A DNA stretch of 64,000 nt. It comes from Candidatus Thorarchaeota archaeon (GTDB lineage: Archaea > Asgardarchaeota > Thorarchaeia > Thorarchaeales > Thorarchaeaceae). Position 1 is the first letter of the stretch. Each line of letters starts with the position of its first letter. The notes beneath the pieces were generated by a model that saw nothing but the letters and a program-made list of their open reading frames with translations, had not been told where the DNA came from and did no database searches. The position numbers and the translations under genes were made by a program. Positions 36,813 through 37,010 of this stretch are shown one piece after another. The stretch covers positions 1 to 64,000 of the forward strand of contig JBHLRS010000013.1 in NCBI GenBank assembly GCA_048882325.1, read 5' to 3'.

Positions 36813-37010
36813 TTGGAGCGGCGGGTCCGCCGAGGCGAACCTTCCGCATCCGTGGAGCTCTTCTTGGCAGGATGCATGGTAAAATCAAATTACATGCGCA
36901 AGACTGCCCCGAAGGGCAATAGGGACCTAGAACTCACTTTGGGACCGTGTTTGCTGCGAGTTCCTGACGGGGGAAGCCATGCAACCCTGTCATGAAGATT
37001 CACAAGCCCG
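36813..37010 (-). ncRNA. Candidate structured non-coding RNA / leader of unknown family
   Basis: At least five hairpins in 200 nt, including c(UUCG)g (36903-36920) and c(CUCG)g (36824-36841) loops; G-U wobbles favour the minus strand; U-tract downstream. Confidence 0.55.

Follow-up and report, generated by a model that had tools for sequence, protein, structure and literature searches.

Several described systems offer points of comparison for the locus reported here. Small RNAs of the CsrB/RsmZ type act as protein sponges or scaffolds and carry a repeated GGA motif. In RsaE/RoxS of the Firmicutes, C-rich loops pair with the G-rich Shine-Dalgarno regions. OLE, raiA, ROOL, and GOLLD are orphan large structured noncoding RNAs (ncRNAs) that came out of comparative genomics. 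To our knowledge, almost nothing is known of Asgard ncRNAs besides rRNA, tRNA, RNase P RNA, and SRP RNA. The window (the whole 64,000-nt stretch of Thorarchaeial DNA that was analyzed) very probably contains a stand-alone ncRNA gene of ~195 nt on the minus strand, from ~37002 to 36806; this high confidence, which comes from sequence comparison, applies to its existence, its strand, and its fold.

In common with the CsrB/RsmZ RNAs, the Thorarchaeial RNA is a stand-alone structured RNA in which a short motif is repeated in loops and joints, in a number that varies among lineages. However, it is unrelated to them in sequence and fold, is archaeal, and has two to four repeats only, and we know of no CsrA-like partner for it. 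With RsaE/RoxS it shares several unpaired C-rich motifs and the organization of an independent gene ending in a hairpin and a U-run. In contrast to those RNAs, its motifs are not complementary to the genome's GGAGG Shine-Dalgarno sequence; it is also roughly double their length and has a closed multi-helix junction. It further resembles Sm-class snRNAs and archaeal SmAP-bound sRNAs in having a single-stranded U-rich tract (GAUUUUACC, GGUUUUUGCC, or CAAUUUUUCG) followed by helices and a 3' stem-loop, but the tract is not a strict RAU4-6GR site, and copies from three genera gave no Rfam snRNA match. Locally, UAGCAUUGGUCCCCUUGC..GCGCA resembles human U6, with no matching ACAGAGA box or internal stem-loop. 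Like OLE, raiA, ROOL, and GOLLD, the RNA was discovered from sequence only and combines a complex conserved fold and invariant junction bases with a lineage-restricted occurrence; unlike them, it belongs to another lineage, and it has no sequence or structural relation to any of them. It is also smaller than OLE and GOLLD and differs from them in having a very conserved promoter of its own.

Identity, position, and strand of the gene

Comparison with Rfam, which the earlier note had proposed as a check, matched no family in copies from three genera: nothing reached the gathering threshold, and the matches at E ≤ 10 were junk-level only. Over the 64-kb window, Rfam 15 at the gathering threshold returned only a tRNA at positions 15428 to 15500, and at E ≤ 10 positions 36650 to 37250 gave junk-level matches only. 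The same note had been unable to match the element to SRP RNA, RNase P RNA, tRNA, or known riboswitch cores, which Rfam and ARAGORN bear out. In the region, the archaeal SRP RNA model (RF01857) gave no match, either at the gathering threshold or at E ≤ 10; a partial SRP RNA is found elsewhere in the genome (contig C25, 45216 to 45362; 50.5 bits), where it is cut by the contig end. The archaeal RNase P RNA model (RF00373) likewise has no match in the region, and the genome's RNase P RNA is located on contig C3 (164.6 bits). ARAGORN detected no tRNA or tRNA-like gene between 36600 and 37200. None of the Rfam snRNA models (U1, U2, U4, U5, and U6) reached E ≤ 10 in copies from three genera.

Other classes of small RNA were compared in the same manner. 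Rfam matches to C/D box and H/ACA guide sRNAs were junk-level, and C/D boxes were not found on reading the sequence. In this genome AACA follows the 3' hairpin (P4, see below); other subgroups have, e.g., UAACCU, CCCAUU, or CACUCUU. The RNA was assigned to neither class. Regarding Y RNA and Ro60, the genome (93% complete) has no TROVE domain, and there was no Rfam Y RNA match. Regarding the omega RNA of TnpB/IscB, there is no adjacent nuclease gene, and the RNA is single-copy, syntenic, and not in viral contigs. Partial likenesses of the plus strand to the guanidine-I (ykkC) riboswitch and to U6 were both rejected, being on the wrong strand and without Rfam support. No Rfam family, and no paper found in the literature, describes such an RNA, which represents a new family; stand-alone structured sRNAs that, as this one probably does, form a ribonucleoprotein (RNP) do have precedents.

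The spacer that hosts the RNA is 447 nt long and is bounded by two minus-strand open reading frames (ORFs), one of 379 aa at 37171 to 38310 (gene c0) and one of 584 aa at 34969 to 36723. The latter has an Arf/Roc GTPase domain and is the longin-Arf GTPase gene, with its start at 36723. G+C content is 52 to 55% across 36800 to 36999 and 35 to 46% in the flanks, so the GC-rich island described in the earlier note is real, though modest. Covariance model R2 matches positions 36999 to 36809 on the minus strand with a score of 153 bits, and both the placing of the element and its minus-strand reading in that note hold.

The TATA-like tract previously seen upstream proved to be a BRE/TATA-like promoter, AGAAAGCTTCTTATG, at 37038 to 37024. 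Its motif, CTAGRAAGSTTCWTATG, is recognizable in 24 of 24 other loci inspected, 25 to 60 nt ahead of helix P1, and the longer of these spacings are occupied by an additional 5' hairpin. The promoter resembles those of tRNA and RNase P RNA genes in the same genome, e.g., aagactctataag and gaactttttatcc, and no other full match with up to two mismatches was found in the 3.6-Mb assembly. Transcription is predicted to start ~22 to 26 nt past the promoter, near 37003 to 36999. At the opposite end, the 3' tail AACAUUUUUG (36814 to 36805) contains the U5 tract reported earlier, at 36810 to 36806. U-rich sequence follows P4 in most copies, and the U-run is presumed to be an archaeal termination signal. 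We infer both ends of the RNA from the promoter and the U-run.

The RNA strand was assigned as minus because G·U far exceeds A·C in paired cells (98 versus 8, counted over all predicted pairs in 28 copies). In line with this, the covariance models give a full-length match on the minus strand only; on the plus strand they match the P4 hairpin alone, the arms of which are able to pair on either strand. Mismatches of the C·A type on the plus strand fall exactly at minus-strand G·U, as seen for GGUUCGC/GCGGACC versus GGUUCGC/GCGAACC: the U·G pair of GGUUCGC/GCGGACC would become C·A on the plus strand. The minimum free energy (MFE) z-score is better on the plus strand (-3.43) than on the minus, or RNA, strand (-1.78), where the folding energy by itself is not significant. 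Given the asymmetry between plus-strand C·A and minus-strand G·U, together with the model matches, the better plus-strand score is misleading. A plus-strand reading was rejected, since its helices would bear C·A and since the promoter and the U-run suit the minus strand. The case for an RNA is one of covariation, not of thermodynamics.

Fold, covariation, and unpaired motifs

In the predicted fold, a long closing helix, P1, surrounds a junction with two hairpins, P2 and P3, and is followed by a 3' hairpin, P4. The 5' strand of P1 (36998 to 36977) consists of UCUUC, an internal loop, CAGGGU, a bulged U, and GCAUGG; it pairs with the 3' strand at 36879 to 36859, which consists of CCAUGC, AUCCUG, an internal loop, and GAAGA. 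All 17 pairs of P1 change on both sides. The joint J1/2 (36976 to 36964; CUUCCCCCGUCAG) is unpaired and has a core, CCCGUC, that is near-invariant according to the invariant columns of alignments A1 and A7. It leads into P2 (36963 to 36930), a hairpin of GAACUCGC and GUGAGUUC whose loop bears ACACGGUCCCAAA. In P2, 99.5% of the cells are paired, four of the seven pairs are invariant, and three change on both sides; the sequence is almost invariant, and genus g2 has CAGAGGCUU/AAGCCUCUG as the stem instead.

The second joint, J2/3 (36929 to 36918), is unpaired UAGGUCCCUAUU and constitutes the second GGUCCC motif, which reads UAGCAUUGGUCCCC in most other genera. P3 (36917 to 36906) is a variable hairpin, GCCC-UUCG-GGGC, that differs in length and number among genera and shows covariation, with five of five pairs changing on both sides. 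In the unpaired J3/1 (36905 to 36880), a CUUGCGCAU block is followed by a U-rich tract (UUUGAUUUUA in this genome) that abuts the 3' strand of P1. Within this joint CUUGCGCAUA is near-invariant, the exceptions being genera g36 and g2 and part of g6 and g32; the U-rich tract keeps its position and varies in sequence, with GAUUUUACC, GAAUUCUUUCG, and GAUUUCUGCG among the variants across copies. A linker from P1 to P4, GCUCCAC (36858 to 36852), is the site of an extra GGUC/GACC hairpin in some genera. P4 itself (36851 to 36815) is a long 3' hairpin made up of GGA-U-GCGG, an internal loop, GGUUCGC-CUCG-GCGGACC, and CCGC-UCC; changes on both sides affect 13 of its 14 pairs.

Conservation is strongest not in these helices but in unpaired bases, namely, those that surround the junction and those at the foot of P4. 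The most conserved unpaired elements are CCCCGUC, the (Y)GGUCCC motifs, CUUGCGCAUA, and the U-rich tract. GGUCC or GUCCC occurs 85 times in 37 RNAs, where shuffled sequences would lead one to expect 18 occurrences. There are typically two core copies of GGUCCC, in the P2 loop and in J2/3, plus lineage-specific extras, usually in the form (A/U)YGGUCCC; most RNAs have two to four motifs, and two copies from genus g3 have one.

Larger insertions were also observed. The RNA of genome G022 (locus L006, 1463 to 1685) has a ~25-nt duplication at its 5' end. A 17-nt hairpin (AUGUUUCGAAAGAAACA) is inserted between J1/2 and P2 in loci L008, L010, L011, and L015 (genomes G021, G018, G019, and G004, respectively). 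Other genera have an added 5' hairpin, extra hairpins that bear GGUCCC, or a GGUC/GACC hairpin before P4.

Covariation was assessed in several ways. RNAalifold, applied to plain MAFFT alignments of two subgroups, recovered P1, P2, P3, and P4 independently. Among 28 copies from 12 genera, 94.2% of the predicted-pair cells are paired, whereas sliding the partners lowers this value to 33 to 45%. Changes on both sides are seen in 38 of 43 pairs; these counts come from alignments fitted to the model, which favor the structure. None of 500 shuffles reached this result, shuffle statistics being inflated by the relatedness of the genomes. In a model-fitted alignment of 20 copies, 94.6% of the cells are paired, compared with 37 to 46% after sliding, and 39 of 43 pairs change on both sides. 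Because model-fitted alignments lean towards the model, the P1 arms were folded separately in an alignment-free manner, the arms of each copy being excised by invariant anchors beforehand. Cognate arms gave -14.75 kcal/mol, and noncognate arms, combined from diverged copies, gave -8.2 kcal/mol. The bias of the model alignments is partly offset, because RNAalifold on the plain alignments and the P1-arm folding agree.

The conservation and covariation that the earlier note had asked for are thus both present. Among the helices it proposed, three are real, with covariation across genera: GAACUCGC/GUGAGUUC (P2), the UUCG hairpin (P3), and GGUUCGC-CUCG-GCGGACC, which forms the tip of P4. In contrast, UGAC/GUCA, GCAUGUAA/UUACCAUGC, and the alternative helix GCAUCC/GGAUGC are confined to the subgroup of this genome and compete with P1, the conserved long-range helix, which was absent from the original list. 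The further suggestion that the GGUCCC repeats could pair with the 3' GGACC found no support.

A number of further contacts were considered and rejected. For a pseudoknot between CGCAA of the P2 loop and UUGCG of J3/1, the loop varies (CACAA, UACAA, and UAAAA) without compensation. Pairing of CCGU in J1/2 with ACGG in the linker is broken in genera g2 and g36, and pairing of CGCAU with AUGCG of P4 shows no covariation. The palindrome UGCGCA, a candidate for dimerization, is broken in g6, g32, and g2.

Distribution and neighboring genes

The RNA was recognized in each of the 16 genera that make up a single Asgard (Thorarchaeia-like) family and, as far as detectable, is restricted to that family. 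Among 60 relatives searched with blastn, the full-length stretch is present at 79 to 95% identity in ~16 genomes of the same genus, and the core at 36916 to 37005 is present in most of the remainder. Covariance model R2 detected full-length copies in 71 of the family's 86 genomes, representing 12 of the 16 genera; R3, a 130-position core covariance model, added genera g34, g35, and g36, and in genus g2 a diverged copy was recognized by eye downstream of c0. There is one R2 copy per genome, save in one genome with two. With near-always a single copy per genome, and with all 16 genera represented, the distribution found by these searches is housekeeping-like. The genome with two copies, G010, holds them on contig C103 (182 to 373) and contig C21 (38494 to 38704), with 92% and 86% identity to the 36813 to 37010 stretch; given an estimated contamination of 7%, a mixture of strains seems a better explanation than a duplication.

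Outside the family, no RNA was found in the single genome of the sister family, in which the spacer after c0 is short and AT-rich, nor in ~125 genomes of other Asgard families, where R3 gave weak matches only. Five of these weak matches were inspected (E values of 0.05 to 1, the E values of R2 and R3 being rough); they lie within ORFs of 188 to 703 aa, are without promoter and P4, and were dismissed as chance. A sensitive search of five near-complete genomes from other families found no copy, and the specific core pattern had no match in viral contigs.

Gene c0 lies directly upstream of the RNA, on the same strand, in 27 of 27 loci. Its product has no Pfam family, and its AlphaFold2 model (pLDDT, 84.9) has a longin-like domain followed by two winged-helix modules, a fold without a known RNA-binding role. 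Foldseek searches with this model gave weak matches to GATOR1 subunits, FLCN, and DENN (TM, 0.25 to 0.28), as well as a weak match to a Lokiarchaeal longin domain, so that the label "NPRL2-like" once attached to the gene is a loose fit only. The c0 protein is unusually conserved, with amino acid identities of 84 to 98% among the family's genera; its counterpart in the sister family is 65% identical. Most of the other Asgard families have relatives of 24 to 36% identity, numbering 1 to 9 matches in each genome, and c0 homologues are common in Asgard genomes without a detectable RNA. A thymidylate kinase (Tmk) gene is usually found upstream of c0, and the Tmk-c0 pair is also kept in most loci with enough flank; because of this, the adjacency of c0 and the RNA may be plain regional synteny. 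Downstream of the RNA, the longin-Arf GTPase gene is found in most loci. The RNA and this gene are separated by an opposite-strand gene in 7 of the 27 loci; one genus, represented by two loci, has other genes downstream, and the stretches fetched for it contain no GTPase gene.

Possible roles of the RNA

We tentatively favor a role as a trans-acting RNP scaffold or binding platform, to which we give a probability of roughly 0.4; this view was reached largely by excluding alternatives and also draws on the analogy of other RNAs with displayed, repeated motifs. The RNA would be part of a trans-acting ribonucleoprotein, as its RNA subunit or scaffold, and the helices would present the repeated unpaired motifs for docking by one or more proteins. 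A multivalent partner could bind the GGUCCC repeats, and the U-rich tract might bind an Sm-like protein. Consistent with a binding platform, it is mainly unpaired bases of the junction and loops that are conserved, the GGUCCC motif is enriched and has lineage-specific extra copies, no conserved antisense target was found, and the motifs are not complementary to the Shine-Dalgarno sequence; neither antisense regulation nor a role in cis seems to fit the RNA. Against a scaffold, the sole invariable neighbor is c0, for which no RNA-binding role is known. The pattern of fold, promoter, copy number, and near-invariant unpaired motifs marks an RNA with an important role, probably exercised together with proteins. 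A far more speculative reading, which we consider very improbable, places the RNA at the core of an Sm/LSm-bound RNP specific to Asgard archaea that recognizes other RNAs through GGUCCC and CCCCGUC. If true, this would be an archaeal snRNP-like particle in the lineage closest to eukaryotes, with unpaired guide sequences in addition to a U-rich Sm-type site and a 3' stem-loop. The genome holds three LSM-domain genes.

Two other trans-acting roles were weighed against the scaffold. The RNA could be an antisense regulator in which the unpaired C-rich CCCCGUC and GGUCCC serve as seeds for G-rich sites, and its several highly conserved C-rich motifs in loops and joints, as well as its status as an independent gene with its own promoter, agree with such a role. 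However, a comparison with C-rich-seed sRNAs found the motifs present but no Shine-Dalgarno complementarity: this genome has a GGAGGTGA-like Shine-Dalgarno sequence, and the complements GGGAC (8 versus 5) and GGACC (15 versus 17) are not enriched upstream of starts. No extended complementary site was found in the genome, in searches that reached only pairing longer than short seeds of 6 to 8 nt and in an assembly without rRNA. Eight exact or near-exact 12-mer complements inspected in five other genomes lie in unrelated, nonhomologous places, and the unpaired conservation covers far more bases than seeds usually need. We regard antisense regulation as unlikely. Less likely still is a catalytic or ligand-binding RNA, such as a ribozyme or trans aptamer, in which the unpaired bases of the three-way junction form a tertiary core. 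Invariant junction nucleotides framed by covarying helices, as seen here, are the pattern of riboswitch aptamers and ribozymes. Yet no Rfam ribozyme or riboswitch matched even at E ≤ 10, no hammerhead or HDV-like core was apparent on reading, and GGUCCC has no GGGAC partner. None of the pseudoknots tried (CGCAA with UUGCG and CCGU with ACGG) is backed by covariation, and a GGUCCC number of one to four suits binding sites better than a fixed active site.

Equally improbable is a cis-acting element, whether a structured 3' UTR of c0, an RNA derived from the c0 3' UTR, or a leader of the GTPase gene. The invariable position directly 3' of c0 on the same strand would fit such an element, and since no obvious T-run follows the c0 stop codon ahead of the RNA in this genome, read-through from c0 is possible. 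On the other hand, a conserved promoter lies between c0 and the RNA in the loci inspected, the adjacency may reflect the regional synteny that also keeps Tmk and c0 together, and c0 homologues are widespread without the RNA, including in the sister family with its short AT-rich spacer. The leader version is already refuted by synteny: the downstream gene differs by genus and is sometimes on the opposite strand, and because this neighbor varies, the RNA is not a leader of the GTPase gene. The earlier note had left a choice between a novel Asgard ncRNA and a switchable leader of the GTPase gene. The first part stands, favored by the lack of an Rfam match, covariation, the promoter, and the distribution; the second falls with the varying downstream gene, the conserved hairpin and U-run at the end of the RNA, and the alternative helices, which are missing in other subgroups, and there was no Rfam riboswitch match. 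The remaining alternative, that the region is no RNA at all but a conserved DNA-level element or a small protein-coding gene, is close to refuted and is the least probable of all. A 71-aa plus-strand ORF (36780 to 36995) and short minus-strand ORFs do overlap the region. However, compensatory changes preserve the helices, the excess of G·U over A·C (98 versus 8) cannot come from DNA-level or coding constraint, indel lengths do not keep to multiples of three, and no open frame is consistent among the copies, several of which are interrupted by stops in every one of the six frames.

Whatever its role, the RNA looks like a well-defined new family: the fold is clear, the gene has a promoter of its own, and the unpaired motifs stay near-invariant throughout a family-level lineage. 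The covariance model, the exact motifs, and the promoter provide a concrete handle for asking about lineage-specific RNPs of Thorarchaeia. Should the partner be an Sm-like ring, or the targets other RNAs, the RNA would bear on the origin of eukaryotic RNPs; should it be an ordinary regulatory sRNA, it would still be a new Rfam-grade family.

Several minor observations were made on the genome and the surrounding sequence. Shine-Dalgarno sequences are canonical: over the whole genome, GGAGG, AGGAG, and GAGGT are enriched 6- to 7-fold upstream of the starts of long ORFs. The 3' end of 16S rRNA was searched for in the assembly and was not found. Across the whole genome ARAGORN detected 14 tRNAs, one of which is a tRNA-Sec. 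Finally, a second conserved noncoding block is located at 36760 to 36790, between the 3' end of the RNA and the GTPase start at 36723. Its plus strand reads TGTGTATATTTTGATATTCTGTGTATCT and, within the genus, is near-unchanged in the full-length subgroup only; its minus strand holds AAAATATAC, which is probably the TATA box of the GTPase gene.
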